Shown here: one piece after another, positions 182 through 14,268 of the stretch
Numbering within the stretch: the first letter of the stretch is position 1
How the letters are laid out: every line of letters begins with the position of its first letter
Assembly: GCA_937886445.1 (NCBI GenBank)
Contig: CALGBY010000112.1
Location: 1 to 19,184, forward strand
DNA from: an uncultured Clostridia bacterium
GTDB taxonomy: Bacteria; Bacillota; Clostridia; Christensenellales; Aristaeellaceae
Length of the DNA: 19,184 nucleotides
Direction of reading: 5' to 3'
Notes under the pieces: model-generated
The model's database searches: none
What the model saw: only the letters and a program-made list of their open reading frames with translations
What the model was told of the DNA's origin: nothing
Made by a program: the position numbers and the translations under genes

Positions 182-856
182 ATGAAACTGTTGCTGGCTG
201 AAGATGAAGATGCTATGAGAATGGCTATTACGGATGTATTGGCGTTCAACCAATATGAAGTGACTGCCGTGTCAGATGGTGAGGAAGCTTTGGAAATGGC
301 TCAGGGGAATCAATACGACGGGCTGCTTCTGGATATTATGATGCCAAAGCTGGACGGCATCAGTGTACTGAAGACGATTCGCAAGTGTGGCAACCAGGTA
401 CCGGTAATCTTACTGACAGCCCGCGGTGAAGTGGAGGATCGCGTGAGAGGTCTTGATGCCGGAGCAGACGATTATCTGCCAAAGCCGTTTGCCATGACGG
501 AGTTGTTGGCTCGGATCAGGGCCATGTCGAGAAGACCGCAGCTTGCGACACAGTGTCTGTCGGTTGGAAACGTTGTTTTGGATGAAGCAAGGGGGCAATT
601 AATCTGCGGTAACGCGTCAGAATCGCTGAGCCGTATTGAGATTGATCTACTTTCTTATCTTGTGCGCAACAGGGGGATCTACTTTTCTGCAGAAGCATTA
701 CTTGACAAAGTATGGGGTATTGACAGTGATGCCGGCATCGGGACCGTATGGGTCTATATCTCGTATCTAAGAAAAAAACTGGTTTCTGTCGGAGCAAATG
801 CGGAGATACGTTCACGGAGAGGTATCGGTTACACGATTTGGGAGACAAAAACATGA
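182..856 (+). CDS. OmpR/PhoB-family two-component response regulator (receiver domain + winged-helix DNA-binding domain)
   Basis: In ORF 134..856, the ATG at 182 is preceded by AAAGGTGG. The N-terminus MKLLLAEDEDAM...LLLDIMMPKLDG...LTA is a typical receiver domain. The C-terminal ...RSRRGIGYTI is typical of the OmpR winged helix. The stop overlaps the downstream ATG (ATGA at 853-856). Confidence 0.9.
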   Translation: MKLLLAEDEDAMRMAITDVLAFNQYEVTAVSDGEEALEMAQGNQYDGLLLDIMMPKLDGISVLKTIRKCGNQVPVILLTARGEVEDRVRGLDAGADDYLPKPFAMTELLARIRAMSRRPQLATQCLSVGNVVLDEARGQLICGNASESLSRIEIDLLSYLVRNRGIYFSAEALLDKVWGIDSDAGIGTVWVYISYLRKKLVSVGANAEIRSRRGIGYTIWETKT

Positions 857-1076
857 AGCAGATCAGAAGGCGCTTCATTACGTCTGCGATGTCTGCACTC
901 CTTATCCTGCTTGTTCTGATTGTCGGCAGTATCATGATCGTCAGCTATACACAGATGGAACAGCAAGGAGAAGCGTTTATTCAGGAAACGCTCAATGAAC
1001 AGGTATCGTTTTCTGCATTTTCTCCGGATCATGGACCGAGAACCCAGCCTGGTCAGCGTAGAGTACCATCTGGCTA

Positions 1077-1088
1077 TTATGACATAAT
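1077..1088 (+). repeat. attL core (TTATGACATAAT)
   Basis: Exact 12-mer is repeated at 13278..13289. Both copies begin at codon position 3 of the kinase frame. Confidence 0.75.
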
Positions 1089-1102
1089 GTTTCCTAAAGC
1101 TT

Positions 1103-1140
1103 GGGGAAGTGTTGATTTTCAACACTTCCCCTTATTTTTG
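1103..1140 (+). terminator. Rho-independent terminator just inside attL (perfect 13-bp stem, 3-nt loop, T-rich tail)
   Basis: GGGGAAGTGTTGA-TTT-TCAACACTTCCCC (1103..1131) is followed by TTATTTTTG. It also lies just downstream of the int stop on the other strand, where the tail is weaker. Confidence 0.7.
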
Positions 1141-1149
1141 TTACTAACG
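1139..1149 (+). repeat. TGTTACTAACG motif, candidate integrase arm-type site (left arm)
   Basis: The same 11-mer occurs at 13180..13190, with a further TGTTACTA at 13169..13176. It overlaps the int stop codon. Confidence 0.4.
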
Positions 1150-2163
1150 TGTTATTAGTTCAATTGCTTCCTTCAGTTCATCCAGCGTTTTATGGGTATA
1201 AACCCTTTCCCCAACATCCTTTGACTTGTGACCCATCATCAGATCTATGCACTTCTTATTGGCACCAGCAGAATCCAAGCTGGTTCTGAATGTGTGCCGT
1301 GTTTCATGGGGTGTGTGCTGCATCCCAAGATTATTACATGCCTGTGTAAAGTAATCCCTGAAGGTGCCGTCATCCATCGGATCACCGTTTTCATCAGTAA
1401 TCAGATAGGTTGACTTTGGATTGAAACGTGCTTGAACTAATTGAAATATTTTTGAATGGATGGGAACTATCCTGTCTTTTCCGTTTCTTGTTTTAATCCC
1501 ACCGGTCATGGTTCTGTTATTCAGATCAACATGATCTGTTCGTAAGGTTAGAATTTCTGTTATTCGCCAACCGGAATAGATCATGATCAGGATGCAGTCA
1601 ACCCATGGATCAGAAACATGCTTCCAAAGAAGTTCCACTTCTTCATCCGTGAAAGGTTGCCGGTCAGAATCTTCAACCGGTGCTGAAGTGGTCAGCTGGG
1701 AATACATAGTCTGGATCACTTCTATTTCCATTGCAAATCTGTCCAGATATCCCCACAAATTCTTGATGGCTGCTTGTGTTGAATATCCGTGTCCACAATT
1801 ATCAATAGTATCCTGCATCTGAAAAGACCTGATAGTTCTGTACTTCAATTCATCCAGCTTGGTGATGTGCTTGTAAGCGGATTTCAGTGAACCTTGAAGG
1901 GATTTTCCAAGCTTTGGAAGAATTGTTTTAGACCATTTTTCAAACAATTCTTTCAGGGTGATGTTCCGGGTATCCACATCATATGGATTCCGGTTGTAAT
2001 CAGCAAGTGCAATCATTCCTTCCTGCTTTGTTGCATAGTACCCAATGACAAGATAAACGGGGTGACCTTTTTCATTCCAGCCGGTTGTCTTTCTGACTAT
2101 GTAAGGTTTCCGTCTGTTACCGGAAAGCTTGACAACTGATCCATATCCGTTTGGATTTTTCAT
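1144..2163 (-). CDS. int: Tyrosine recombinase / phage-type integrase with AP2-like N-terminal DNA-binding domain
   Basis: 339 aa. The N-terminus GSVVKLSGNRRKPYIVRKT resembles the Integrase_AP2 type. The catalytic region has SGWRITE (Arg), HETRHTF (His-x-x-Arg), MGH and VYTH (Tyr). It lies adjacent to the att site. Confidence 0.9.
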   Translation of the reverse strand: MKNPNGYGSVVKLSGNRRKPYIVRKTTGWNEKGHPVYLVIGYYATKQEGMIALADYNRNPYDVDTRNITLKELFEKWSKTILPKLGKSLQGSLKSAYKHITKLDELKYRTIRSFQMQDTIDNCGHGYSTQAAIKNLWGYLDRFAMEIEVIQTMYSQLTTSAPVEDSDRQPFTDEEVELLWKHVSDPWVDCILIMIYSGWRITEILTLRTDHVDLNNRTMTGGIKTRNGKDRIVPIHSKIFQLVQARFNPKSTYLITDENGDPMDDGTFRDYFTQACNNLGMQHTPHETRHTFRTSLDSAGANKKCIDLMMGHKSKDVGERVYTHKTLDELKEAIELITR

Positions 2164-2280
2164 AAGCGCAAAACCTTCTTTTCATGTTGATACGGAAGGT
2201 TGTTAATCCTTATAAAAGGTGGTAAAATAAGAATTGATAGATACCTTCCATTCTTGGGTGTTTGGTGGGTGTTGGTCTGT

Positions 2281-2307
2281 CCGGGGAGAGGTGGTAGCTC
2301 TCCCCGG
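2281..2307. terminator. GC-rich hairpin between the 168-aa gene and int (10-bp stem, loop GTGGTAG)
   Basis: CCGGGGAGAG-GTGGTAG-CTCTCCCCGG is followed on the plus strand by ATTTTTCAT. There is no T tail on the minus strand, so leftward read-through into int is plausible. Confidence 0.5.
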
Positions 2308-2321
2308 ATTTTTCATATTCG

Positions 2322-2828
2322 TCATTTCAAATCAGAATCTATCAGTTCTGGCTTAATACCATCCAGAATAACAGATATAGCGTTGATGATAGATTTTTCT
2401 TCTGTTTTTAGTGCAATGCTGCGCAATTCATAAACAATCATATTTTCAAGTTCTTTATAAACTGTCATTCCATCAGGATCAGAGATTTTTATCATGTTAT
2501 TGTCAGCTTCAAGTTCTTCTTTCCACTCCAAAATATCTTCAGCTGCAACTTCACTTTCAGGGATTTGGAACAACTGATAAGGAATACCATTTTCGTCTTT
2601 CTTCGCTTCAACCGTTTTAGGTTGAACATGAATTCTCTGACAATTAGGACAAACAAACGCATAGAAAAATATGTTCTCCCCAATAGGAAATACCGTTGTG
2701 TTAAAATTCTTATCAGTTACACTTCTCCGATCAATATACCGTTCTGTTTTCTTCCCAGCATCTGCAACGAACAAATTATCTTCATAGATGTTCATAATTA
2801 AACGTGATCTGGCTTCTTTAATTGTCAT
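2322..2828 (-). CDS. Hypothetical protein (168 aa), no recognisable family
   Basis: ORF 2322..2834. The ATG at 2828 has an AAAGGAAG SD 8 nt upstream. It has a single CPNC motif and an acidic C-terminal half. Confidence 0.6.
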   Translation of the reverse strand: MTIKEARSRLIMNIYEDNLFVADAGKKTERYIDRRSVTDKNFNTTVFPIGENIFFYAFVCPNCQRIHVQPKTVEAKKDENGIPYQLFQIPESEVAAEDILEWKEELEADNNMIKISDPDGMTVYKELENMIVYELRSIALKTEEKSIINAISVILDGIKPELIDSDLK

Positions 2829-2876
2829 TCTCAATTCTTCCTTTCTTTTGATTATTCTTTGTTGATTTCTCTTGTT

Positions 2877-3002
2877 CTGACTACCTGACTATAAAATATA
2901 TATATTCTATATTCTTTCTTATGCGTGAAAAAAAATGAAATCATTTTCTTTTTTCCTTACGCAAAGGGTGAAAAACGGGGTTTCAAGTAGTCAGTTAGTC
3001 AG
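2877..3002. repeat. Candidate replication origin: inverted pairs of 7-mer iterons flanking a 96-bp AT-rich spacer
   Basis: CTGACTA c CTGACTA (2877..2891) and its complement TAGTCAG t TAGTCAG (2988..3002) flank the AT-rich stretch TAAAATATATATATTCTATATTC...GAAAAAAAATGAAATCATTTTCTTTTTT. It lies immediately downstream of the primase-helicase stop. Confidence 0.45.
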
Positions 3003-4989
3003 ATTTGATGAAATACTGACAGCGGACACCTTTGAAGGGTTCCCGCCGTAATTGCTTTGTTGAAAAACCGAACCGCTGTTTTATTCCCCGGCTGAAATCC
3101 TTCTGTTCTTTGGGTTCCAGACCAGAAGCAAAACAGAAGGATTTATAATCTGGATATAATCCGGTTGTTTCAACTCTGATCGGTTGCTTCAACAATTGGA
3201 TTTCATCAATGCTACATTCTTCCAGCCATTGAAGCACCGAATCATTTTCAGTTACGAACTGTTTCAAAATCCGTTCACTTTCTTTGGTGGAAATGAAACC
3301 GTTGTTTTCAATCAATGATTTGTAACCTTCAATAGCCATGTTCAGCAGCGTTGACAAGGATTGATCTGAAAGCAGTTTATCCAGAAGGTCAGGATCATAC
3401 CCTTTCACCTTCTGATTGAAAACCTTGTTGAATTCAAAGATAACCGCTCTTCTTTCAATCCCGTCAAAATCATTTGAAAAATCCGGGAAGTTGTTCATTC
3501 CAAAGATCAGTTTTCCGGTATAGATATAATCCTTGATTGTTTCCCGGTACTTCCTTTCAATGGAAATTGGGTCACCAGAAGAAAGGGATTTGAAAATTTC
3601 AGAGGAAAACACTTTCCCTTTCTTTGCATCTGAAAAGATATTTGCTGTTGTGTTTACCAGCGGAGTTAATCCGAACTTATCACCCATGTTTGAAAACTGA
3701 ACGTGTGAAACATTCCGCTTCCCGCAAAAGCTGGATATCAGATTTAGGGCTGTTGATTTTCCGGTTGACGGTTGACCAATCAAGAAGAAGAATTTCTGAT
3801 ACTTCACATGGTTCATCATCAGATAACCTATCATCTGTTTGAACAGTTCAATTTGCTTGAAATCCCTATTGAACCAACTGAATAGGGTTTCTTGCAACAG
3901 TTCATCAGCGGATTCAGGATCATAAAGGGCATTGAATTGCCTGAAGCTGATCCTTTCCGGGTTGTGGGGTTCAAAGGTGAATTCCCCGTTGTCAAATACC
4001 AGAATTCCGTTTCTAACATTGACCGTGTTATCATCTTCAGGAATTTCTTTCCGGGTGATTCCTTTGATGTGTCGGACAACTTCTTTTTCAAAGTTCCCGT
4101 TCAGCTTTGGTTTCATGGTTGTTAGATATTCCGTGATTCTGGATTCATCAAAGGGAAGATAAACCCCGTTTTCATAATCGTACATTGTCCCGTTGACCGT
4201 CATAAGCTGGAAGTGTTCCGCAACTTCATGCGCTACTTCAGAATGTGAAGGGGCGTTGTCCTTTTGGCTTTCCTTCAGCTTGTTCATGGTCTTTTCATTA
4301 AGGATTTCCGCTTTCAGGGTTTCTTCCGGTATTGGATCAGCGAAAACATAACCGTTCATCAGTTCGATAATCTGAAAAGCCTGTTCCACTGAATAACCTT
4401 TCTTCTGAACAAGATGAAACAGATAAGCCCCGATTTTTTGTGTTCTTTTCCCGGAAGGGAAATCAAGGTCAAAGGGCTTGCTATGTAACCCCTGAAGCGG
4501 AAACAGGAAGAAAGGCAATTCATCTACATCATCATTTTCAAGTGATCCCCGGAAGAATTCCCGCTTTACCCTGTTGATCTGAAGGGGGATATGATCATCA
4601 CTTGTTGGAAACTTCCATTCCATCTTTACCCCAACAGGACAATACCAATTCTGTTTGTTCTTTGCTTCAAGGGCTTCCGGTTTCCTGAAGAACAGGTGTT
4701 TTCCGTGTTCCGTTCTGATTCCGTTGTATTTGATATTCAGACTATCCAGTAGCGCAATAACAGCTTCAGACCGTGGCTTTCCTTTGATTGGTTCATCAAT
4801 TTCCCCGGTCTTGTGGTTGTAATCATCAATATCAACCTTCAGGAATTCAGGCTTATAGGAACAACCGTAACTATCCCATCTTGGATTGACTTTAGGATAA
4901 TACTTTCTTGGTGACTGATTAGGTTCAGGATTCTTAAACCCTGCTGGATGCTTTCCGTTGAATTCGATATACTGAACAATCAAAATCAA
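2995..4989 (-). CDS. Replication protein: primase/polymerase N-terminal region fused to a D5/P4-type superfamily-3 helicase domain
   Basis: 664 aa with Walker A GQPSTGKS and a later hydrophobic-DD/E region (ANIFSDAKKG). The size and layout are typical of phage/plasmid P4-family primases and satellite Pri-Rep proteins. The TTG start overlaps the upstream stop by 4 nt, so the start is uncertain. Confidence 0.85.
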   Translation of the reverse strand: MILIVQYIEFNGKHPAGFKNPEPNQSPRKYYPKVNPRWDSYGCSYKPEFLKVDIDDYNHKTGEIDEPIKGKPRSEAVIALLDSLNIKYNGIRTEHGKHLFFRKPEALEAKNKQNWYCPVGVKMEWKFPTSDDHIPLQINRVKREFFRGSLENDDVDELPFFLFPLQGLHSKPFDLDFPSGKRTQKIGAYLFHLVQKKGYSVEQAFQIIELMNGYVFADPIPEETLKAEILNEKTMNKLKESQKDNAPSHSEVAHEVAEHFQLMTVNGTMYDYENGVYLPFDESRITEYLTTMKPKLNGNFEKEVVRHIKGITRKEIPEDDNTVNVRNGILVFDNGEFTFEPHNPERISFRQFNALYDPESADELLQETLFSWFNRDFKQIELFKQMIGYLMMNHVKYQKFFFLIGQPSTGKSTALNLISSFCGKRNVSHVQFSNMGDKFGLTPLVNTTANIFSDAKKGKVFSSEIFKSLSSGDPISIERKYRETIKDYIYTGKLIFGMNNFPDFSNDFDGIERRAVIFEFNKVFNQKVKGYDPDLLDKLLSDQSLSTLLNMAIEGYKSLIENNGFISTKESERILKQFVTENDSVLQWLEECSIDEIQLLKQPIRVETTGLYPDYKSFCFASGLEPKEQKDFSRGIKQRFGFSTKQLRREPFKGVRCQYFIKSD

Positions 4990-5189
4990 TCACCGCTTTC
5001 ATGTACCAGCTTTTCAACAGGAACCTTCAGAACAGAAGCAATCTTTCCGATTGTGGCGGGTTTTCCTTCTTTTCCGTTCATCAGGTTCCGAAGGGTTGCA
5101 TACTGACACCCGGCCTGTTTGGATACCTGAAGCGGATTCAAGCAAGCGTTTGCCATAGCAAGTTCAAGTTTCTGTTTACTAATTTTCAT
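4986..5189 (-). CDS. Small XRE-family HTH protein (Cro-like; first gene of the leftward replication operon)
   Basis: The ATG at 5189 has a GAAAGGAAAG SD. The 67-aa product contains LQVSKQAGCQYATLRNLMNGKEGKPATIGKIASVLKV, which fits an HTH_3-type fold. The upstream extension to 5261 lacks an SD. Confidence 0.75.
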   Translation of the reverse strand: MKISKQKLELAMANACLNPLQVSKQAGCQYATLRNLMNGKEGKPATIGKIASVLKVPVEKLVHESGD

Positions 5190-5265
5190 TTCAATTCTTT
5201 CCTTTCTCTTTTCGTTCCGTGGTAAGGTACTACGCAAGCAAGGGTTATATGAAATTGACAAGGTT

Positions 5266-5350
5266 CAAAAACCGATTGTGTTTAATCGGTAAAAGTATGA
5301 TAGCAGATTGCTAACTATATGTCAACATCAAAAACAGATAGAAAATAATC
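5266..5350 (-). promoter_or_regulatory. Promoter-operator module copy 1 (leftward): TTGACA-17-TATCAT plus the palindrome ACCGATT-N6-AATCGGT at about +1..+20
   Basis: The -35 is at 5320..5325, the -10 at 5297..5302 and the palindrome at 5271..5290. An A/T-rich UP-like tract lies upstream. An ~85-bp near-identical copy is at 6261..6346. Confidence 0.65.
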
Positions 5351-5359
5351 ATTTCATTA

Positions 5360-5389
5360 TTGCCAATTCATCACAAGATATGGTATTTT
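5360..5389 (+). promoter_or_regulatory. Rightward promoter for the repressor gene (TTGCCA-18-TATTTT with TG extension)
   Basis: TTGCCA is at 5360..5365 and TGgTATTTT at 5381..5389. It is back-to-back with the leftward promoter. Confidence 0.45.
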
Positions 5390-5412
5390 ATTATTTTGTG
5401 GGGGTGGTTACT

Positions 5413-5766
5413 TTGTCATTTGCGGAAAGATTGCGGATGTACCGGAAGCAAGCACACCTAACACAAAAGCAGTTAGGTGAAAAATCTGGTTGTGCTGAAA
5501 TCAATATCAGGCAGTATGAAGCGGGAAAATATACACCGAAACCAGAAGCAGGAAAAAAGATTGCTGATGCTTTGGGGGTTTCTGTTTCTGATCTTTATGG
5601 TTGGGATGAAGGTTCAGCAGCTTTAGCAACGGAAGTTAAAGCCATTGAACAGCGGGAAAAGGATTTGTTGCGGATTTTCCGGGGGTTGAAGTCTGAAGGT
5701 CAGGAAAGGGCAATTGATTATTTAACTGATCTATCAGAAATTCCGAAATACCAAAGAGAAGAATAA
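5413..5766 (+). CDS. XRE-family HTH repressor (CI/Stl-like candidate master repressor), divergent from the cro-like gene
   Basis: LSFAERLRMYRKQAHLTQKQLGEKSGCAEINIRQYEAGKYTPKPEAGKKIADALGVSVSDLYGW is a classic HTH_3. It has a ~55-aa C-terminal extension. The start is taken as TTG 5413 after GGGGGTGG. The ATG at 5380 and the 5308 start lie upstream of the predicted promoter. The start is uncertain (GTG 5398/5404 are possible). Confidence 0.75.
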   Translation: MSFAERLRMYRKQAHLTQKQLGEKSGCAEINIRQYEAGKYTPKPEAGKKIADALGVSVSDLYGWDEGSAALATEVKAIEQREKDLLRIFRGLKSEGQERAIDYLTDLSEIPKYQREE

Positions 5767-5772
5767 AAAACA

Positions 5773-5800
5773 CCCGCTGAAGGTGGTAGGCTTCAGCGGG
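5773..5800. terminator. Bidirectional rho-independent terminator between the convergent repressor and 137-aa genes
   Basis: CCCGCTGAAG-GTGGTAGG-CTTCAGCGGG is preceded by AAAAAACA and followed by TTTCATCGTTT. Confidence 0.7.
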
Positions 5801-5828
5801 TTTCATCGTTTGGGGTTTAAGGTCTGAT

Positions 5829-6242
5829 TCAGGCAGCTTCAACAGCCGTTATCTGAATCGGTTCTGATTTCTTCCCGGTTAGGTTGACCGTGATAACCGC
5901 CCCGAAATCCTTCAGAAGATAGCTGATTGTCTGAAGGGCGGTTTCAAACTGCTTGAAGGAAACGAATTTCAGCCGGGGGAACTTGTCACCTTCCAGAAAC
6001 TTCATGGTTTCAACGGGGAATGAATTGTTCAGGCCATCAATCAGGCTGTTCATGATTTCCGAAACGTGGTAAACATCGAAGCTGTTCATGATCCGGGTTG
6101 CAACCGTCACCATTTCCCCGGATTCATCCACCATCTTCAGAACAAAAACCGGGGTAAGCTTTTCAGAAGCATTAGCCAAAGAAACGGAATACAGAGAAAC
6201 CTTGTGTTCACCATTGGTAAGGGCTGTTTTGATCATCAACAT
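5829..6242 (-). CDS. Hypothetical protein (137 aa), no recognisable family
   Basis: The ATG at 6242 has a GAAGGAAGG SD 8 nt upstream. It is driven by promoter-operator copy 2. It forms a monocistronic unit ending at the 5773..5800 terminator. Confidence 0.65.
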   Translation of the reverse strand: MLMIKTALTNGEHKVSLYSVSLANASEKLTPVFVLKMVDESGEMVTVATRIMNSFDVYHVSEIMNSLIDGLNNSFPVETMKFLEGDKFPRLKFVSFKQFETALQTISYLLKDFGAVITVNLTGKKSEPIQITAVEAA

Positions 6243-6260
6243 GATAGATACCTTCCTTCT

Positions 6261-6346
6261 CAAAATTCCGATTGCTTTCAATCGGTAAATGTATGATAAC
6301 AGATTGCAAACTATATGTCAACATCAAAAACAGATAGAAAATAATC
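6261..6346 (-). promoter_or_regulatory. Promoter-operator module copy 2 (leftward): TTGACA-17-TATCAT plus CCGATT-N6-AATCGG
   Basis: The -35 is at 6316..6321, the -10 at 6293..6298 and the palindrome at 6268..6285. In the 67-bp core (6280..6346 vs 5284..5350) I count 3 mismatches. Confidence 0.65.
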
Positions 6347-6354
6347 TGTTTTCC

Positions 6355-6384
6355 TTGCGTTTTCCCTTCAAATCATGTTATAAT
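6355..6384 (+). promoter_or_regulatory. Rightward promoter of small-ORF cassette A (TTGCGT-18-TATAAT with TG extension)
   Basis: TTGCGT is at 6355..6360 and TGtTATAAT at 6376..6384. Geometry relative to the duplicated module matches that of the repressor promoter in copy 1. Confidence 0.55.
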
Positions 6385-6390
6385 TAGTAA

Positions 6391-6488
6391 AAGTCGATTG
6401 TTCCCCCCCTTTTAGGCAGCGGGAAACAATGTGTGCTTCCAAAGCAATTTCACCCCTGTTGATTCGGCATAGCAACAGGGGGCTTTTT
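6391..6488 (+). ncRNA. Candidate ~95-nt structured leader or small RNA (two hairpins; the second is an intrinsic terminator)
   Basis: Hairpin 1 spans about 6397..6430 (ATTGTT..CCC / GGG.AACAAT). Hairpin 2 is CCCCTGTTG-N11-CAACAGGGG (6453..6481) followed by GCTTTTT. It lies between the promoter and the RBS of ORF A. Confidence 0.35.
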
Positions 6489-6514
6489 CATAAGATCAGA
6501 AAGGAAGGGTTGTC

Positions 6515-6658
6515 ATGATCCCGGAATGGTTTGAAGAATGGGTGATTTTGGAAACTGATAATTGGTACCTGAAACCGGATGCACCAAAGGAAATTCAGGA
6601 AGAATTTTCCCGCTGGATGAAAGAGCATGAAGGAAACGAAAATCTGATTGTGGATTGA
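6515..6658 (+). CDS. Small Trp-rich acidic protein A (47 aa), unknown function; paralog of 12627..12773
   Basis: It is below the ORF-track cutoff. The ATG at 6515 has an AAAGGAAGG SD. The product is MIPEWFEEWVILETDNWYLKPDAPKEIQEEFSRWMKEHEGNENLIVD. It is about 50% identical to a second copy on the opposite strand, which argues for real coding. Confidence 0.55.
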   Translation: MIPEWFEEWVILETDNWYLKPDAPKEIQEEFSRWMKEHEGNENLIVD

Positions 6659-7328: not shown

Positions 7329-7820
7329 TCAGACAACTGAAGCATATTCTTCTATCTTTCCTTCCTTTTCTAGAAGGTCAAAAATTGCTAGTAAGCCTTT
7401 TTCATAATACCTGAATGATGTTTTTTCACTCACATCGTCAAAATCAAGTATTACTGACCAAGGAAGAAGGTGAATGTGTTTTAAGCAAAGATAGATTCGA
7501 CTGTTTCTATCCTGAACCATTTCAATTGCTTTCCTGACTTCAATCTGCATATCAACCAGTTCTGCAAGTTTATCTTCAGCGAGATTTTCAAGCTGCTCTT
7601 TTTCTTGAAAAAATTTTTCGTAGTAAGCTTCTTGTTTCTTGGATGTTTGTACAGAAGGTTTATCCAATTGTATTGGTGGTAAACTGTACATTTTTTCATT
7701 TGCCTTTTTTATCTCTCCGATCAATGATTCTATTTCCAAGTCTGATCTTTCGTATCTGGAAAGAAACGACCGGGCTATTCGCTTTTTCTGCATTGGATCA
7801 TAGTTGGTTGTTCGAAGCAT
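7329..7820 (-). CDS. Putative late-gene transcriptional activator with a sigma-70 region-4-like C-terminal HTH (RinA/ArpU/DUF1492-type position)
   Basis: 163 aa. The C-terminus RIYLCLKHIHLLPWSVILDFDDVSEKTSFRYYEKGLLAIFDLL resembles a region-4 HTH. It sits immediately upstream of terS, as late activators do in Firmicute siphophages. It has an AGAGGTGA SD. Confidence 0.5.
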   Translation of the reverse strand: MLRTTNYDPMQKKRIARSFLSRYERSDLEIESLIGEIKKANEKMYSLPPIQLDKPSVQTSKKQEAYYEKFFQEKEQLENLAEDKLAELVDMQIEVRKAIEMVQDRNSRIYLCLKHIHLLPWSVILDFDDVSEKTSFRYYEKGLLAIFDLLEKEGKIEEYASVV

Positions 7821-7833
7821 TATTAATCACCTC

Positions 7834-8004
7834 TTACAAATGAAACATTATCTTAAAGTTTTCTACTTCTTTCCGATAGTTATCAGTCATTCTTCGGAGT
7901 GTCTGAGTTCTTACATTTGAATTTCTGGCTGAAAGAATCAATACTTTTTCTTTTTTTAACCGTTCGTATTCAAATTGACGCAGCTGCTTTTCAACCTTTC
8001 GCAT
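7834..8004 (-). CDS. Small basic hypothetical protein (56 aa)
   Basis: It is below the ORF-track cutoff. The ATG at 8004 has an AAAGGAAG SD. The product is MRKVEKQLRQFEYERLKKEKVLILSARNSNVRTQTLRRMTDNYRKEVENFKIMFHL. It fills an otherwise empty gap in a tightly packed operon. Confidence 0.45.
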   Translation of the reverse strand: MRKVEKQLRQFEYERLKKEKVLILSARNSNVRTQTLRRMTDNYRKEVENFKIMFHL

Positions 8005-8018
8005 TGACAATACTTCCT

Positions 8019-8207
8019 TTACTGCTGTTCTGATTGTTCCATCAGAAGATCACGGAAAAAATCATCGGGATTTCCAAAAACAAGCCTTGGATTCAGATTC
8101 AACGGTTTTCTTTCGTTTTCATTCTGTTTCTGGATACGACTATATTTTGGTGATATATATTCAGATCCATATGAGATTTGATATACTTCTTCTTTTCTGG
8201 TTTTCAT
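8019..8207 (-). CDS. Hypothetical protein (62 aa)
   Basis: The ORF is in the operon orientation, but I see no clear SD upstream of the ATG at 8207. Confidence 0.35.
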   Translation of the reverse strand: MKTRKEEVYQISYGSEYISPKYSRIQKQNENERKPLNLNPRLVFGNPDDFFRDLLMEQSEQQ

Positions 8208-8223
8208 GATTGTTTAGAAAATC

Positions 8224-8257
8224 ATACCGGGTTTGTAGTAAATCACAAACCCGGTAT
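8224..8257 (-). terminator. Perfect 13-bp hairpin after the 251-aa gene (terminator or attenuator)
   Basis: ATACCGGGTTTGT-N8-ACAAACCCGGTAT. On the minus strand it is followed by GATTTTCT, a short T tract, so termination may be partial. Confidence 0.5.
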
Positions 8258-8271
8258 AGTCAGTTCATGAT

Positions 8272-9027
8272 TTACTTCAAAATAGTTTCAATCAATTCTC
8301 GGTCAGAGATAACATGATTCTGAAACAGACTGGAAAATTGGTTTTCCAGAACTGAATACATCTTCCCGACTTGAATCATCCATTCTTCACATGAAAGGAA
8401 ACTGTAAGGAATCCTATCCTGCATATAAATAACCGGGGAATCATTAACAGACGAAGCGTAAAAATCATAGTTGGCTGCATTGGTGAGGATGTCTTTTATT
8501 CGATCAAAGTAATTCAGATAATCAACAACGTTTGTATATACACCGGATTTTTCTTCAATCATAATCAGAACTTCATTACTATACTGATCAACCCCACCAA
8601 GGGATCTTGTTTTAGAATCAGCCTTGACACGGATAACATCCAGTACAGTTTTTGTACTTCGATATGATCCTGATAATGGTTGAAGGATATTTTTAAGATT
8701 CACAGTATCCAAGGAAGAATCCAGCATATCAACAACACGAAGAGCATTCTGAATATCAACGGAATGATCTTTGTTATCTTCCGGGAAAGTAATTTCAAAA
8801 TCCTTGCAGAATTTATCAACAATTTCCCGGAAAAGCTTACTCATGTTTTTACAGCTTTCCTTAAGTTCAGAGAAGATGACCTGTTTCTTCTCTTCTTTTC
8901 CTTTCGGTGACCATCTCCAATCAGCCATCAATTGATTCAGGGAATCACCTTTTTCTTTAATCGTTTTTGCAAAGAGAGCATTCATAGTACGAACCTGATC
9001 TGCATATGTTTTGTAATTAGTTGTCAT
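8272..9027 (-). CDS. Hypothetical protein (251 aa), apparently helical, no recognisable family; co-transcribed with the tape measure gene
   Basis: The ATG at 9027 has an AAGGGTGG SD 8 nt upstream and lies 30 nt after the tape-measure stop. It does not resemble the beta-rich distal tail proteins that normally follow a tape measure gene. Confidence 0.65.
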   Translation of the reverse strand: MTTNYKTYADQVRTMNALFAKTIKEKGDSLNQLMADWRWSPKGKEEKKQVIFSELKESCKNMSKLFREIVDKFCKDFEITFPEDNKDHSVDIQNALRVVDMLDSSLDTVNLKNILQPLSGSYRSTKTVLDVIRVKADSKTRSLGGVDQYSNEVLIMIEEKSGVYTNVVDYLNYFDRIKDILTNAANYDFYASSVNDSPVIYMQDRIPYSFLSCEEWMIQVGKMYSVLENQFSSLFQNHVISDRELIETILK

Positions 9028-9057
9028 TATGTTTTCCACCCTTTCTTTTTGTATTAA

Positions 9058-12000
9058 TTATAAGTAAATCCCTTCCGCAACGATTTCCAACCGTTCTGCA
9101 ACCTTGTCTTCCAACTGGGAAATAATGCCGTCAATATCCATGTCAGAACTGATCGTGTTATTGTTGTTCATTTCAACCTTCACTTCAGCTGTTGTGAAGT
9201 GATTGATCACTTCACGTTCAGCCAGTGACCGGATCTTCTGAACATCAGAATCAGACAATTTCACAGCATCAGAAGCATCTTCTATCAACTGTGCTTGTTC
9301 CATGGCAGCAAAGTCACCGATCAAAGACCATGTAGAATCATCCCATGCTTTGGTAATGCCAGTGGAAGCGCTGACAACAGCCTTTTCCATATCATACCGA
9401 CCATCATTCACGGCATTGACATAACCGGCAACCATCATGGATCCAGACCAATAGGTTTCCTTAGACGGGGAATGAATACCGGCAGCAGCATTGGCAGCAG
9501 CCAAAGCATTTCTGACAACGGCAGCAGCAGCTGCTGCAACCGCACCGGATCCGGAATTGATACCCTGTACAAAACCGGCATCAATCATTGCACCGGTTGT
9601 AGCTGCAACACCAACAACCATTCCAGCAGTGGACTGAATACCGATTGCCAAACCTTCATTCAAGAAACCACCGGCAGCAATAGTATAGGTAGACGGGGAA
9701 GCAACACCCAAGGCACTGAGGATAGCACTTACCGTTGCGGATGCCATAGCGGAACCGGATGCAGCCGGTTGACTGGCACTTCCGTCAATACCACCGGCAA
9801 GACCGGCAGACAAGTAAGCACCCCATTCAGCAGGATTTTCACCGGCTGCTTCCAGCGCTTGTTTGAAATCCAATGTTTTGATGATTCCTTCCATGGCACC
9901 GGAAAGACCGGACATATCCATGTTTTCACTGATTTCAGGATTTTCAAGCATGGATTTAAGCAAGCTGGAAAGAATCGGATTATCAGATACAGTCTGAAGA
10001 TCATTAGAAAGTGCTTCCATGATCTGTTTTTCGTAATCATCCATGAATAAATCGACATTGCCTAATTGACCGACACCAAAGAGATCATAGAAGGATTCAA
10101 AACTATCAAATCCACCAAATTGATCAGCAAAGAATCCACTATCCCATGCAGATTTTGCAATAGCCTTAGTATAAGCTGCATACTGTTGATCAAACATTTC
10201 ATTGTATGTACCGTCAGCATTATAGGTACTCAAATTACTCCGTTCAACAAACATCCGCATTACATCATAATCACCAGCTGCCTTTTCTAAAGCAGATGCA
10301 GCTTCCGGATACTGGGAAGCCATACCATTGAAAAGTTCACTGATTCTTTGGGTGTATTCAGTGCGAAGTGAATCAAGTTCTGTACTAAGGGAAGTTCTCA
10401 GGGTGTCATATTCCAGCCTTGCAGCTTCAGCAGCAGCGGTATCACCGGCAGCAGCTGCTTCAGCAATCTTCCGTTCAGCTTCCTGCATTTTGGCAGCGTA
10501 TTCAGAAGCAACCTGATCAATTGCAGCATTGGATTTTGCTGCTTCATAAGCAACGGCAGTTCCAAACATGTCAGTGGTGCCAAAACCATAAGCAACAGCG
10601 GTTGAAGTATTTTCATAATCTTGATTTATTTCACCGGGTTTCAAACCGTCCAATGCTGCTTGAACTTCTGCTATCTTACCCATGGTGCTGTTATAAGTTC
10701 CGTCATCAATCGTGATCGGAATATCCTTGGCACCTTCCAGAATTCTGTCCAGATCGGAAGGAATAGATGCAATGGCTGTACCGATAGCAGCCACGGCACC
10801 GGCAATCAGCATAGCCTGACCAACGGGTGTATTCACCACAAAATTGGTAACCGCACCAAACGCTTTTGTCAGCGTTTCAGAATTCTTGATTCCTTTGATT
10901 GTTTTCAAAGCGGTACTTACAGTTTTCACGGCAGTACCGGCAATGGTCAAAGTCGGTCCAAGTGCAGCCAAACCACCAAGGAAGGTGATCAAAGCAGTCT
11001 GATCTTCTTCAGACATTTTGTTGAATCCATCAAGGATGTTATTCACAATATCCAGTGCCGGTTGAAGCGCTTGGGCAAGATTTTCACCGAATTCAGCCAT
11101 GGTATTATGAAGCTTGTTTCCAAGCATACCGGTCTGACTTTCGGTTGTTTCCATTTGCTTGTTGAATTCTTCAGTAGCTGCTGTTCCCTGATCGTAAGCA
11201 TCCACAGCAGCCTGAATAGCGGATGCAAACAGTTCCGGTCTGGATGCCATTGCAGCAATCAGATTTGACTCACGGATTTCTTTCAGACCCATCTTGTCCA
11301 AGACGGCAAGAATGGATTCACCACCGTTTTCACCCATCTTGCTAAGTCCAACAAAGAAGTTGGACATGGCATCAGCAGGATTCTTGTTCCAGTCATCAAT
11401 GAACTGCTGTGAAGTTTTTCCGGATGCTTCAGCAAACTGATCCATCAGCAGCCAACTGTCACCCATGGATTTGACGGCATCCACCGTCATGTTCATGCTT
11501 GTGGCGAGATCAACCAGATCTTCTTTCTTGGCACCGTCAACCCATTGACTGAATTCAAGACCAGATCCAAATTCCATACCGGCAGCGGAAAGTTTCTGCT
11601 GTGCCTGACCACCAACTTCAGCAGCCATCTGGAATTGTTTAATCAATTTTGCAGCAGCTGAACCACCGGCTTCCGGATTGATACCAACAGCCCGGAAAGC
11701 GGTTGCCATACCAAGAATTTCAGGTGTAGATATCCCGGCAAGGTGTGCAGCGGAAGCCATTCTGTTACCAAGGGCAAGGATCTGGTCTTCAGTGGCATTG
11801 AAGTTGTTGCCCAGATCAACAACGGCAGAGGAAAAAGCCCCAATGTTGGCAACTCCACCTTCAGTGATGTTCAGGAAAGAAGCAACATCCTGAGCGCCAC
11901 TTTCACCAGAAATGTGCTGATCAGTAGCATACTGAAGTTTGGCATATTCAGTCATGAAAGCTTCCATGTCATTGATAGCCACACCCAAGTTACCACCGGT

Positions 12001-12402
12001 TTGAGCAATTCCCATCAGGTCTACATAGGACATGGGGGTTGTTTCGGACAGTTCCAAAGCGGTTTCTTTCAGCGCTTGATACTGGGCATCTGTTCCTTCA
12101 ACCGTCTTGGTCATTCCGACAAAGGCAGCTTCATAATCAGAGAAATCACCAAACATACTTTTGCCAAGGGCAATCAATGGGGCAGTAATGGCAAGTGTCA
12201 TGGTCTTACCAACCTTCTGCATCCGTTCCCCGGCAGCTTCAGCTTTGGCAATGAAATTATCAAAGCTGAAGCCGTCAATGGTTCCCTGTTCGTCAGCTAC
12301 ACCTTTAAGGGCTGATTTCATGGAATTGATATTCTCTTCAATGGTAGCCAGCTTTCCGGACATCTTGTCAACAAGTTCAATCGTTGAAGATATCGTTGCC
12401 AT
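9058..12402 (-). CDS. Phage tail tape measure protein (TP901-family core region)
   Basis: 1114 aa. The N-terminal region is coiled-coil-like. The segment ...LSETTPMSYVDLMGIAQTGGNLGV...LGNRMASAAHLAGIS... is typical of the TP901 TMP core. There are central hydrophobic segments (ALITFLGGLAALGPTLTIAG, AMLIAGAVAAIGTAIASI). The C-terminal region is Ala/Gly-rich and contains the GIHSPSKETYWSG motif common in Firmicute TMPs. Confidence 0.85.
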   Translation of the reverse strand: MATISSTIELVDKMSGKLATIEENINSMKSALKGVADEQGTIDGFSFDNFIAKAEAAGERMQKVGKTMTLAITAPLIALGKSMFGDFSDYEAAFVGMTKTVEGTDAQYQALKETALELSETTPMSYVDLMGIAQTGGNLGVAINDMEAFMTEYAKLQYATDQHISGESGAQDVASFLNITEGGVANIGAFSSAVVDLGNNFNATEDQILALGNRMASAAHLAGISTPEILGMATAFRAVGINPEAGGSAAAKLIKQFQMAAEVGGQAQQKLSAAGMEFGSGLEFSQWVDGAKKEDLVDLATSMNMTVDAVKSMGDSWLLMDQFAEASGKTSQQFIDDWNKNPADAMSNFFVGLSKMGENGGESILAVLDKMGLKEIRESNLIAAMASRPELFASAIQAAVDAYDQGTAATEEFNKQMETTESQTGMLGNKLHNTMAEFGENLAQALQPALDIVNNILDGFNKMSEEDQTALITFLGGLAALGPTLTIAGTAVKTVSTALKTIKGIKNSETLTKAFGAVTNFVVNTPVGQAMLIAGAVAAIGTAIASIPSDLDRILEGAKDIPITIDDGTYNSTMGKIAEVQAALDGLKPGEINQDYENTSTAVAYGFGTTDMFGTAVAYEAAKSNAAIDQVASEYAAKMQEAERKIAEAAAAGDTAAAEAARLEYDTLRTSLSTELDSLRTEYTQRISELFNGMASQYPEAASALEKAAGDYDVMRMFVERSNLSTYNADGTYNEMFDQQYAAYTKAIAKSAWDSGFFADQFGGFDSFESFYDLFGVGQLGNVDLFMDDYEKQIMEALSNDLQTVSDNPILSSLLKSMLENPEISENMDMSGLSGAMEGIIKTLDFKQALEAAGENPAEWGAYLSAGLAGGIDGSASQPAASGSAMASATVSAILSALGVASPSTYTIAAGGFLNEGLAIGIQSTAGMVVGVAATTGAMIDAGFVQGINSGSGAVAAAAAAVVRNALAAANAAAGIHSPSKETYWSGSMMVAGYVNAVNDGRYDMEKAVVSASTGITKAWDDSTWSLIGDFAAMEQAQLIEDASDAVKLSDSDVQKIRSLAEREVINHFTTAEVKVEMNNNNTISSDMDIDGIISQLEDKVAERLEIVAEGIYL

Positions 12403-12481
12403 TCCGTTTCACCGTCCTTTCTGTATAAGATTCGGGGGAATTCTGCATAAAATAGATATTATATTGAATAATCCCATGAAA

Positions 12482-12510
12482 ATTATACCACAAAATGTTA
12501 GCAAATGCAA
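12482..12510 (-). promoter_or_regulatory. Near-consensus promoter directly upstream of the tape measure gene (TTGCAT-17-TATAAT with TG extension)
   Basis: On the minus strand the -35 is at 12505..12510 and the -10 at 12482..12487, preceded by TGg. It lies about 73 nt upstream of the TMP ATG and just downstream of the cassette B terminator. Confidence 0.6.
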
Positions 12511-12601
12511 ACGAAACCATTTATTTTCAACGGTTTCAGCCATTTCAAGCGGGACTGAATTTTATTCATTTTATTCAATTTTTCAATGAAATGATTGAAA
12601 T

Positions 12602-12627
12602 GAAAAAACCGGGCTGCTACACCCGGT
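12602..12627 (-). terminator. Rho-independent terminator of small-ORF cassette B
   Basis: The minus strand reads ACCGGG-N8-CCCGGT followed by TTTTTT. The stem overlaps the ORF B stop codon. Confidence 0.65.
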
Positions 12628-12773
12628 CAATCAACACATATTCCCGTTGTTTCGGTATCGTGAAGCTTCATCCATTCTTCAAATTCCTTCCGGTGTTCCT
12701 CATGGGTTCCCGGCTTCAGATGCCAATTATCCGTTTCAAAGATAACCCATTCAGGGAACCAATCAGGAAACAC
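12627..12773 (-). CDS. Small Trp-rich acidic protein B (48 aa), paralog of 6515..6658
   Basis: The GTG at 12773 has a GGAAGGGG SD 7 nt upstream and an in-frame stop just upstream. The product is VFPDWFPEWVIFETDNWHLKPGTHEEHRKEFEEWMKLHDTETTGICVD. The shared pattern is P-[DE]-WF-x-EWVI-x-ETDNW-x-LKP...EF..WMK.H...VD. Confidence 0.5.
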   Translation of the reverse strand: MFPDWFPEWVIFETDNWHLKPGTHEEHRKEFEEWMKLHDTETTGICVD

Positions 12774-12807
12774 GATTTCACCCCTTCCAGATCATCAGAA
12801 AGAATAT

Positions 12808-12857
12808 CCCTTCCCCAAGGCTTGATTGTGCCTAATCAACCAACTTTAGGGGAAGGG
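12808..12857 (-). promoter_or_regulatory. Leader hairpin of cassette B containing an anti-SD-like arm
   Basis: CCCTTCCCC (12849..12857) pairs with GGGGAAGGG (12808..12816), with an inner TTGATT/AATCAA stem. A T-rich ATATTCTTTCT follows. The same CCCTTCC could instead pair with the SD GGAAGGG at 12782..12788. Confidence 0.4.
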
Positions 12858-12901
12858 TGCCGAAAAAGAAACCAAAAATGAAAACCCGATGCCATACGGA
12901 C

Positions 12902-12930
12902 ATTATACACCTTTTCCCGGACACAGTAAA
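12902..12930 (-). promoter_or_regulatory. Promoter of cassette B (TTTACT-17-TATAAT)
   Basis: On the minus strand the -35 is at 12925..12930 and the -10 at 12902..12907. Confidence 0.45.
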
Positions 12931-13130
12931 CCCCCGGTTGGCTGGAAACCAGGGGTTGCCTTCAGGCTTCACTTCCTTCAGGATGAACAAATTGTATTAC
13001 CTTCAGAAAGCCCCGTCAATATAGCCCAGCCTTTCAGATTTGCGATTCTGGCGGGGTCTGATCGTTTTCCCCGGTATTCGCCCATCTGAACCGGAAAGGG
13101 GCTAAAAAGGGCTGTTTTTGAGCCAAAGAA

Positions 13131-13157
13131 GGAACCGGGCAAAAAACACCCGGTTCC
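13131..13157. other. Perfect 9-bp GC-rich hairpin in the right att arm
   Basis: GGAACCGGG-N9-CCCGGTTCC. On the minus strand it is followed by TTCTTTGG, a weak tail. It may insulate the element from transcription entering from the right junction, or it may be a structural att element. Confidence 0.35.
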
Positions 13158-13168
13158 GGTCTGATCCT

Positions 13169-13190
13169 TGTTACTACCCTGTTACTAACG
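13169..13190 (+). repeat. Tandem TGTTACTA motifs at 11-bp period (candidate arm-type integrase sites, right arm)
   Basis: TGTTACTAccc TGTTACTAACG. The second copy is identical over 11 bp to 1139..1149 in the left arm, in the same orientation. Confidence 0.4.
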
Positions 13191-13277
13191 GGGGAGTTTT
13201 CCCCGGTCTGAAAAAAGCCTCTGAAGCTTGAAACGGTTGAACTTTCAGCCCTTTCAATACGTTGAAATTGAACAAAT

Positions 13278-13289
13278 TTATGACATAAT
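13278..13289 (+). repeat. attR core (TTATGACATAAT)
   Basis: It is an exact copy of 1077..1088. The flanking bases differ on both sides. Confidence 0.75.
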
Positions 13290-14268
13290 AACAGATGCGA
13301 ACGGACAGATCACGAAGCAAGACGCGAGGGGCATCATAGATCCGGAAGAACATCAGGTCGAAGAGATGGTGCGGCAGATCCTCTCAGGTGGAAGAATGAC
13401 CGGCAATATCAGGCCCTTCAAATATGGGACGGCCATCACACAAGATGGTACACGCATTATTTTAGTGGACCAGTCATTCCAGCTGCAGTTTATCTATTCT
13501 AACCTTCGCGGTGCATTACTTGTATCAGTTGCCTGTTTGCTGCTCATGTTCATCATTTTACAACCGATTGCCCGTAGGGTTGCAAAGGCAATAATGGCAG
13601 CACAGGAACGACAGCGCCAGTTTATGACCAATGCAAACCATGAAATGAAAACGCCTGTCGCGGTCATTCAATCAAACATCGAAGCAATGGAAATGATCAA
13701 CGGTCAGAACAAATGGAGCCGGAATGTCCACCAGCAGACTTTGCGTTTGAATTATATGATTTCTCAGTTGCTCCTTCTTGAACGTATGGGAGAATACACA
13801 TACCAAAGTCCAAGAAAACCGGTCAGTATCGGCGTTCTTGTAAAGACAATTACGGAAGATATGGGTGAACTGCTGGCGCAAAGAAACATTCGTATTGATT
13901 ATGACGTCAGCGATCAATGTGTGATCTGTGGTTATGAAGAAGCCTTAATTCAACTGATCAGAATATTGGTAGATAATGCAGCCCGTTACGCATCCGAAAA
14001 CTCATTGCTGTCCATTTCTGCTATTCGACATGGCCGAACTTCAATCATTCGCTTTTTGAATCAAGTTGAACATTTACCGGACTGCGCGCCGGATCTGCTT
14101 TTTGAGCGATTTCATCGAGGTGGGATTGCACGAAAAACGGGCGATGTTGGCTGCGGGATTGGATTGTCAGCGGCATCAAGTATTGTTTCAATGCACCACG
14201 GAGAAATCAATGCCTCATATCCGGATGAACACAGCTTTCAAATTACAATCAGGCTTCCAACCAAGTAA
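13278..14268 (+). pseudogene. 3' portion of the sensor histidine kinase gene (rest of the extracytoplasmic domain, TM2, HisKA, HATPase_c)
   Basis: ...LLVSVACLLLMFIILQPI is TM2. The H-box is FMTNANHEMKTPV, the N-box is LVDNAARYA, and the G-boxes are GCGIGLSAASSIV. The ORF-track start at 13228 (TTG) is element DNA with no SD, and an in-frame stop lies at 13222. Confidence 0.85.

Follow-up and report, generated by a model that had tools for sequence, protein, structure and literature searches.

A sensor kinase gene split in frame by a 12.2-kb satellite-like integrative element in an uncultured Clostridia bacterium

We analysed a 19,184-nt stretch of DNA (the window; contig CALGBY010000112.1 of assembly GCA_937886445.1) from an uncultured bacterium of the Clostridia (Christensenellales; Aristaeellaceae), in which the gene for a transmembrane sensor histidine kinase is divided into two parts by an integrative element with a tyrosine integrase. 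An earlier reading of the same DNA, made without database searches (the sequence-only reading), had proposed that a 12.2-kb element bounded by a 12-bp direct repeat, here identified as the attachment (att) core, divides the kinase gene in frame, and that excision of the element might act as a genetic switch.

Interrupted kinase gene

The two-component system at this locus is laid out as follows:

182 to 856, + strand: response regulator of the OmpR/PhoB type (Pfam Response_reg and Trans_reg_C); the open reading frame (ORF) is open from 134, with the likely start a methionine at 182
853 to 1088, + strand: 5′ fragment of the kinase gene (codons 1 to 78 plus 2 nt), encoding the first transmembrane (TM) segment and the first part of the sensor loop
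13290 to 14268, + strand: 3′ fragment of the kinase gene (codons 79 to 404), encoding the remaining sensor loop, TM2, HisKA and HATPase_c

The stop codon of the response regulator gene overlaps the start of the kinase gene (ATGA). Only two copies of the 12-mer TTATGACATAAT exist in the window (1077-1088 and 13278-13289, each on the + strand), and the identity between the repeats ends precisely at both edges of the 12-mer. Both copies start at codon position 3 of the kinase reading frame [(1077 − 853) mod 3 = 2; 13290 − 13278 = 12]. Joining 853-1088 to 13290-14268 gives 1215 nt, equivalent to 404 codons plus a stop, and the encoded protein reads ...RRVPSGYYDI|ITDANGQ... across the junction. Pfam domains HisKA (residues 187-246) and HATPase_c (residues 295-403) were identified in the joined protein, and hydropathy indicates two TM segments, at approximately residues 8-35 and 148-177. 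Because the junction, between residues 78 and 79, falls between these two segments, the break lies in the extracytoplasmic sensor loop of approximately 115 residues. The phospho-acceptor H196 is invariant in the ortholog alignment. The full set of features of a HisKA-family transmembrane sensor kinase (TM segments, sensor loop, HisKA histidine, HATPase_c, and an adjacent OmpR-type regulator) is found in the joined sequence only.

The joined kinase is closest to an uninterrupted kinase of a sister species (P0002; 404 residues, 80% identity), and has the same length as other uninterrupted orthologs or differs by one residue (P0003-P0007; 403-404 residues, approximately 50% identity). The multiple alignment with P0002-P0010 is gap-free at the junction, with G74, Y76, and D77 nearly invariant. 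At the DNA level, a single 1984-bp high-scoring segment pair (83.8% identity) crosses the junction when the joined sequence is compared with an intact locus (L001), and the same intact kinase gene was found in the Clostridia metagenome-assembled genome SGB_6089 (L002); the window response regulator is 88-90% identical to the regulator beside the intact kinase in both loci. Thus, the in-frame split and the architecture that the sequence-only reading had reconstructed (complete TM1, sensor, TM2, HisKA, and HATPase) are both borne out, with Pfam and hydropathy in agreement, and its prediction of colinear, gap-free alignment to uninterrupted orthologs of the same length proved correct. Both parts of the kinase gene are undecayed: dN/dS is 0.15 for each, at a dS of approximately 0.7 relative to the sister species, and there are no stops or frameshifts.

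In the unjoined window, the left kinase ORF (853-1158) runs into a stop at 1156-1158, 23 codons inside the element. The right ORF (13228-14268) has a TTG start and encodes 346 residues, and is identical to the gene call on the source contig (P0001). The first 17 codons of this call are element DNA, so the insertion has been annotated like a normal, shorter kinase. The target is not an RNA gene, given that Rfam and tRNA scans were empty.

Boundaries of the element

The attachment sites and arm-type sites were located as follows:

1077 to 1088, + strand: attL core TTATGACATAAT (in the sense of the integrase gene, ATTATGTCATAA), an imperfect palindrome TTATG-a-CATAA
1140 to 1148, + strand: P-arm arm-type site GTTACTAAC, inside the conserved integrase-family block TAATAACACGTTAGTAACAAAAA
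13170 to 13189, + strand: P′-arm pair of arm-type sites, GTTACTACC and GTTACTAAC
13278 to 13289, + strand: attR core TTATGACATAAT, identical to the attL core at 12 of 12 positions

Maximal exact direct repeats of at least 12 nt number 32 in the window, so that a 12-nt repeat taken alone is at chance level; this pair is meaningful because it is placed exactly at the breakpoints of both the kinase homology and the attP homology of the integrase module. Relatives of the integrase in IMG/VR (at most 76% identity) mostly have a contiguous attP downstream of the integrase gene (int), in which the arm block TAATAACACGTTAGTAACAAAAA is followed by a hairpin, the core ATTATnnCATrA, the motif ATTTGTTCAATTT, and, approximately 100 nt further on, a pair of GTTAGTAAC-type sites. 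Once joined, the two ends of the window element match this layout column for column, colinear with the attP regions of 15 relatives; in the unjoined attL, similarity to the relatives' attP is lost exactly after the core. These breakpoints place the element at 1089-13277, with predicted entry by a tyrosine-recombinase crossover within the 12-bp core. Its length is 12,201 bp including one core copy, and its GC content is 41%, compared with 47.5-48% in the flanks.

The arm-type consensus GTTACTAMC occurs four times in the window, against 0.15 occurrences expected: once in the P arm (1140), twice in the P′ arm (13170 and 13181), and once in the element interior. Overall, the organization is that of a lambda-type att system, with the catalytic R/HxxR/H/Y residues in the integrase, an identical inverted-repeat core at both junctions, arm sites on both sides, and a contiguous attP in relatives. 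The predicted attB is GGTCAGCGTAGAGTACCATCTGGCTATTATGACATAATAACAGATGCGAACGGACAGATCACG and the predicted attP is CAACACTTCCCCAAGCTTTAGGAAACATTATGTCATAAATTTGTTCAATTTCAACGTATTGAAAGG. The interior site, an exact GTTACTAAC at 6671-6679 (− strand), is far from both att sites. It lies in an ORF-free gap (6282-6780), in which the approximately 430 nt around the site could hold an origin or a pac site.

Gene content of the element

All genes of the element are on the − strand except that for the CI-like repressor:

1144 to 2163, − strand: tyrosine integrase, 339 residues (PF00589, 83 bits; phrog_1)
2322 to 2834, − strand: orf170, 170 residues, a conserved family ORF that always lies between primase and integrase (41% identical to its counterpart in the related contig L129)
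2995 to 4989, − strand: P4-family primase/D5-type helicase, 664 residues (DUF5906, D5_N, Pox_D5; phrog_864; TIGR01613, 163 bits against a cutoff of 109)
4986 to 5261, − strand: Cro-like small helix-turn-helix (HTH) regulator, first gene of the early operon cro-primase-orf170-int (PHROG repressor/regulator families; homologs in the related contigs L129 and L137)
5267 to 5350, no strand assigned: promoter/operator, copy 1 of an 84-nt direct repeat (− strand promoter TTGACA-17-TATCAT at 5325-5297)
5308 to 5766, + strand: CI-like HTH repressor, divergent from the early operon (HTH_3, HTH_31; PHROG repressors)
5829 to 6281, − strand: orf150, 150 residues, driven by the second early-promoter copy
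6263 to 6346, no strand assigned: promoter/operator copy 2, 90% identical to copy 1 (− strand promoter at 6321-6293)
6781 to 7314, − strand: terminase small subunit, TerS (PF03592, E 4e-37; phrog_51)
7329 to 7820, − strand: DUF1492/phrog_36 transcription regulator, sigma-like, positioned like a late-gene activator
7834 to 8010 and 8019 to 8207, − strand: two small ORFs
8272 to 9039, − strand: orf255, 255 residues, a conserved family ORF (44% identical to its L129 counterpart)
9058 to 12402, − strand: tail tape-measure protein, 1114 residues (PhageMin_Tail; 21 PHROG tape-measure/tail families; TIGR01760, 89 bits against a cutoff of 28.8)

The integrase gene lies 56 nt from attL, and the catalytic motifs of its product (R...HxxR...H...Y) align to the XerC-like structure 4a8e as WRITE(R), HETRHTFR, GH, and VYTH. 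The 84-nt promoter-operator repeat holds a 38-nt exact block and is placed both before the cro-primase-orf170-int operon and before orf150; one repressor probably controls both transcription units, and the duplication points to coherent regulation rather than decay. A peptidase (autocleavage) domain was not detected in the CI-like repressor. No match to orf170 was found in Pfam, PHROG, or PADLOC; it is a candidate excision or replication accessory. For orf255 there was no family match, a PDB sequence search gave nothing usable, and a single-sequence AF2 model had a pLDDT of 44, too low to be usable. Pfam and PHROG annotation identified no capsid, portal, large terminase subunit (TerL), tail tube, or lysis genes in the element, and a PADLOC scan for defence cargo returned generic HTH matches only.

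A counterpart with 52% identity across the entire tape-measure protein is located within a complete structural module (L083). A promoter at 12511-12482 (TTTGCA-18-TGgTATAAT) indicates that the tape-measure gene has its own promoter, outside any late operon. Between this gene and attR, approximately 875 nt (12403-13277, − strand) contain only one 48-residue ORF (12627-12773), two terminator-like hairpins (13157-13131 and 12628-12607), and this strong promoter.

Related elements

Relatives of the primase are numerous, and many are encoded on contigs of 10-12 kb. An 11,925-bp contig (L129) carries homologs of nine element genes (int, orf170, primase, cro, CI, TerS, DUF1492, orf255, and tape-measure) and its two ends overlap by 141 nt, as would be expected of a circle of approximately 11.8 kb. 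A second contig (L137; 11.5 kb) encodes the tape-measure protein, DUF1492, CI/cro, primase, an orf170 homolog, and the integrase. Gene content together with these two relatives upholds the sequence-only description of the element as satellite-sized, marks it as satellite-like, and places it in a conserved family of approximately 12 kb with at least one apparently circular member. Among GenBank phages, primase identity is 22-27% and the best integrase match is 41%. Two 12.8-kb human-fecal records named 'Bacteriophage sp.' share only the integrase or CI and were rejected as members of this family.

Integrase target choice

Two other assemblies (L126 and L127) encode an integrase protein with 100% identity to that of the window, the Logan runs SRR21150990 and SRR19135263 contain the identical integrase, and the cassette at 1077-2189, comprising int, P arm, and core, is 99% identical at the DNA level (L126, 1113-2226; L127, 21-1134), which indicates recent mobility. 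The cassette similarity ends sharply at a point 26 nt before the start of int; together with the 99% identity, this points to recent cassette exchange. In L127 the cassette is followed by an attP with the core ATTATACCATAA, beyond which lie endolysin, holin, and reverse transcriptase genes; this locus is a full phage, and phages of this type are possible helpers. In L126 the cassette is followed by the core ATTATATCATAA and unrelated DNA. A 98% identical integrase copy (L124), with the core ATTATACCATA, is placed upstream of a DEAD-box helicase gene, which is intact and approximately 150 bp away. No ORF is split at the core in four junction-type relatives (L008, L039, L124, and L126). Since the same integrase, or one 98% identical, is found at other, apparently intergenic sites, the integrase clade does not appear to be specialised on this kinase, and the insertion looks like one that used a sequence happening to match the core.

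No kinase fragments were found beside related integrases among 80 IMG/VR loci, and no other interrupted kinase was found among 66 homolog clusters or in a scan of one genome per species; the databases searched hold only one genome of the window species. At the homologous place, the kinase gene of the sister species reads CTATGATATTAC, which matches the core at 8 of 12 positions.

The core of this integrase occurs with three different central sequences (ATTAT-ACC-ATAA, -ATC-, and -GTC-; window compared with the L124, L126, and L127 cores). Either the overlap specificity of the integrase is relaxed, or the core of each element has co-evolved with its target. Searches for other copies of the P-arm/core junction gave no match in JGI metagenomes and one in IMG/VR: the 24 nt of window 1081-1104, which take in 8 nt of the GT-type core and the last part of the P-arm spacer, recur exactly at 10748-10771 of IMGVR_UViG_3300044260_000112 (L138), a high-GC viral contig that is unrelated and shows no similarity on either side of the match.

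Transcription at the junctions

Two transcription signals were identified at the ends of the element:

1103 to 1141, + strand: hairpin and T-run terminator facing incoming host transcription (13-bp stem, ΔG −23 kcal/mol, z −5.6)
13262 to 13289, + strand: outward promoter TTGAAA-N16-TGaCATAAT, with the −35 box in the P′ arm of the element and the −10 box in the att core, reading into the 3′ kinase fragment

The position of the terminator is conserved in the P arm of the relatives' attP. Among the relatives, 17 of 21 distinct attP regions (L003-L043) show the pattern TTGnnn-N16-18-TGnTATAAT, with its −10 box inside the core, compared with 5.6% of random 50-nt segments from the same loci. The att core is thus the predicted extended −10 box of a conserved promoter, which the sequence-only reading had overlooked. 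At the L124 junction the host side reads TTGTCA-N16-TGgTATAAT, which suggests a host promoter as the usual attB, to be re-created at attR with the element's own −35 box.

The first in-frame start with a Shine-Dalgarno sequence (AGGTGG, spacing 4 nt) downstream of the attR promoter is the ATG at 13396 (M115 of the joined kinase). The sequence-only reading had stated that the interrupted form loses every catalytic domain; this is so for the 5′ fragment, but the 3′ fragment keeps all of them, directly downstream of an element-borne promoter.

Neighbouring exporter operon

Outside the element, the kinase gene is followed by one further operon:

14449 to 18539, + strand: HlyD/MacB-type ABC ATPase/FtsX permease/HlyD operon

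Between this operon and the kinase gene lie a terminator (14276-14295) and a promoter-like site (14325-14354). Both in the sister species and among orthologs of 51% identity, the regulator-kinase pair consistently lies beside a cluster of ABC_tran, ABC2_membrane, ABC_transp_aux (DUF7088), and DUF4340 genes (L002, 4454-9046; L131, 8262-12905), and no HlyD/MacB genes were found near the pair at these orthologous loci. The ABC-2/DUF4340 cluster is therefore a better candidate regulon than the HlyD/MacB operon, and the suggestion in the sequence-only reading that insertion uncouples the exporter operon from its sensor was a guess that synteny in the orthologs does not support. The window starts 133 nt upstream of the regulator ORF, and any conserved partner cluster on that side would lie beyond it.

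Origin and consequences of the insertion

We consider it probable that the locus records an opportunistic, still-reversible disruption of the kinase gene by a satellite-like element, and not an evolved regulatory switch. The attP core ATTATGTCATAA would have been crossed with the identical 12 bp encoding Y-Y-D-I-I (codons 75-79) in the sensor loop, a target that would be a look-alike of the promoter-type site usual for this integrase family. While the element is integrated, the transcript of the regulator and the 5′ kinase fragment would end at the hairpin just inside attL, full-length kinase would be absent, and the response regulator would be left without its cognate kinase/phosphatase; the 3′ fragment would be transcribed, if at all, from the element promoter whose −10 box is the att core. 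Derepression of the early operon would lead to excision and to precise rebuilding of the kinase gene. The trigger is likely to be a helper phage, given that no autocleavage domain was detected in the repressor and that the TerS and tape-measure cargo serve particle formation; a helper-dependent life style normally ends in lysis, which argues against a switch that serves the host. Excision is mechanistically plausible given that the integrase, core, and arm sites are intact.

Several points weigh against this interpretation. Direct evidence for excision is lacking, and the pattern of the element's own circular junction (attP), ATTATGTCATAAATTTGTTCAA, gave no match in either IMG/VR or JGI metagenomes. 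No small ORF of the element matches a known excisionase (Xis) family in Pfam; orf170, conserved beside int, is a candidate. Both junction cores are GT-centred whereas those of the identical integrase elsewhere are AC- or AT-centred, so that the core could be tuned to the kinase site as a dedicated target. With a single genome of the species, a species-wide dedicated attB, or recurrence of the element in this kinase gene, is possible.

It is unlikely that the element forms a regulated switch, as had been proposed in the sequence-only reading by analogy with active lysogeny, and as is known for the SpyCI islands of Streptococcus pyogenes, in which case cue-driven excision and reintegration, or toggling with an episome, would turn the two-component system on and off. 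Precise restoration of the kinase ORF by excision (in silico), the intact integrase, core, and arm sites, the position of int at the end of a repressor-controlled early operon, the circular family member L129, and the undecayed kinase halves would all suit such a switch, and the satellite-like island SpyCIM1 in mutL provides a precedent (PMC3430984; PMC4689407). By the same precedent, a switch of satellite size is less distinctive than had been supposed. Yet no other occupied kinase allele, no empty allele from the same species, and no attP junction were recovered from the databases searched. The homolog search, the one-genome-per-species scan, and exact-protein look-ups for empty-site alleles returned only the window's own contig, the nearest intact allele being that of the sister species at 80% amino acid identity. 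Further, the identical integrase resides at other, apparently intergenic sites, the sister species does not have the core (8/12), and TerS, the tape-measure gene, and a CI without a peptidase domain indicate helper-dependent induction that normally ends in cell lysis. The literature searched describes no histidine kinase as a target of active lysogeny, which is no evidence of function.

Also improbable is that the insertion has created a new allele, in which the attR promoter expresses an N-terminally truncated kinase (e.g., from M115; approximately 290 residues with TM2, HisKA, and HATPase_c) that acts constitutively or as an unregulated phosphatase. The promoter at 13262-13289 faces the 3′ fragment, which has all catalytic domains; the promoter-in-core arrangement recurs in 17/21 attP regions of relatives, compared with 5.6% of control segments; an AGGTGG Shine-Dalgarno sequence precedes the ATG at 13396 with 4-nt spacing; and the island-borne promoters of SpyCIM5 rescue downstream host genes (PMC3430984). 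The promoter, however, is a consensus match with a −10 box of 5/6, and a product without TM1 and half of the sensor loop may fail to insert into the membrane or to fold. In relatives this promoter probably keeps the downstream host gene on after integration at a host promoter (L124), and any action here would then be incidental.

A broader proposal joins several of these elements: an undescribed class of tape-measure satellites of gut Clostridia, with a core that is the −10 box of a portable promoter, of which the window copy acts as a SpyCI-like sensor switch, the kinase being silenced or truncated until excision. As a whole we regard this as quite improbable.

That the element is a fixed, dead prophage remnant in a pseudogenised kinase is very improbable. 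The lone tape-measure gene does look left over, with a 52% identical homolog in L083 within a full structural module, and approximately 875 bp without clear genes separate it from attR. Against this, the same gene set, tape measure included, occurs in independent elements of approximately 12 kb, one with a circle-consistent terminal overlap; all ORFs are intact, the att cores match at 12/12 positions, and the arm sites fit the family consensus; the integrase is 100% identical to copies elsewhere, and the kinase halves have no stops or frameshifts. The sequence-only reading had named a fixed and dead split with degraded repeats in related genomes as a refuting outcome, and no related genome with the same split and degraded att sites or a disrupted integrase was found.

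An assembly artefact, with a mobile element chimerically joined into the kinase gene, is exceedingly improbable even for a short (19.2 kb) metagenomic contig (P0001 and P0187 are on one contig of 19,218 bp), since the 12-bp repeat is far below assembler k-mers, the junctions are in register at the same codon, which is the attP crossover point set independently by 15 relatives, and a chimera would not yield a target-site duplication of the integrase core. We rejected both the chimera and the dead remnant on the junction register, the recurrence of the family, and the intact ORFs and att sites.

Comparison with known systems

Integrative elements in protein-coding genes are common, and the finding as it stands is a clean, well-bounded case of such an event. 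As a worked case it provides exact attL, attR, attB, and attP, and illustrates that a mobile insertion can be mis-annotated as a 346-residue kinase. The tape-measure family and the promoter-in-core integrase family are the more unusual items, and these by-products may outweigh the original claim.

The window element shares with phage-inducible chromosomal islands (PICIs) a size of approximately 12 kb (8-18 kb in PICIs) with att repeats and a terminal integrase, divergent CI/Cro-like regulators beside a primase-helicase, TerS, and the absence of capsid, portal, large terminase, and lysis genes. It differs in that PICIs have no virion structural or lysis genes, whereas the window element has a full-length tape-measure gene that is conserved in the L129/L137 family, and in that its integrase gene closes the early operon on the 3′ side and is not divergent from it. 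Because of the tape-measure gene, we call the element satellite-like and do not file it as a PICI.

Tape-measure genes are reported to be otherwise unknown in satellites, except for the EPIPs of Mycolicibacterium and a tape-measure-like protein in PLE11 (2025 preprint PMC12822802). EPIPs are likewise satellite-sized, with TerS and tape-measure genes and most structural and lysis genes absent (PMC12822802). According to the gene list of the preprint, EPIPs have a serine integrase, a head-tail adaptor and stopper, scaffolding, and a major capsid protein, in an actinobacterial host (PMC12822802), whereas the window family has a tyrosine integrase, a P4-type primase, and no capsid-related genes, and is found in Clostridia-type metagenomes. 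A family of approximately 12 kb that carries a tape-measure gene bears on how satellites exploit helper tails.

As with integrases that enter promoters or the 5′ part of genes and bring replacement sequence, such as the dusA-specific integrases (PMC4482086), the att core lies within functional host sequence and an arm of the element supplies sequence, here a −35 box that would sustain transcription past attR. In contrast, dusA elements restore the coding 5′ end of their target (PMC4482086), whereas the window element gives the kinase no replacement N-terminus or TM1; its promoter seems designed for host promoters, as at the L124 junction, and not for ORFs. The promoter-in-core integrase family bears on how the transcriptional damage caused by integration is kept in check by temperate elements.

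Active lysogeny and intervening elements include phi10403S in comK, SPbeta in spsM, and skin in sigK. Further cases are the yin element in yabG (PMC10747680) and Phi13 in hlb (10.1101/2025.02.04.636441). These cases share with the window an ORF interrupted in frame, a short flanking direct repeat, and an intact gene predicted on excision; the window element is located within an otherwise functional host gene, and precise excision restores the frame in silico only. They differ in that condition-linked excision has been demonstrated, often in a terminally differentiating cell, or with the element as an episome without lysis, and the integrase clade of the window element does not appear to be dedicated to the interrupted gene. 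Should excision and reintegration occur in living cells, the window element would be a mobile element that gates a signal-transduction pathway.

A close parallel is with the mutL islands of S. pyogenes such as SpyCIM1, which are also small and phage-like or satellite-like, encode an integrase, enter the 5′ portion of a host gene by site-specific recombination, inactivate that gene while integrated, and restore it by precise excision (PMC3430984; PMC4689407; PMC4129442); in SpyCIM5, as is predicted here, an island-borne promoter can drive downstream host sequence (PMC3430984). For SpyCI, 9 of 16 genomes carry an island at the identical mutL site, and excision and reintegration linked to growth phase have been measured (PMC3430984; PMC4689407), whereas the window element is known here from the sequence of one genome, targets a sensor kinase, and carries TerS and a tape-measure gene.

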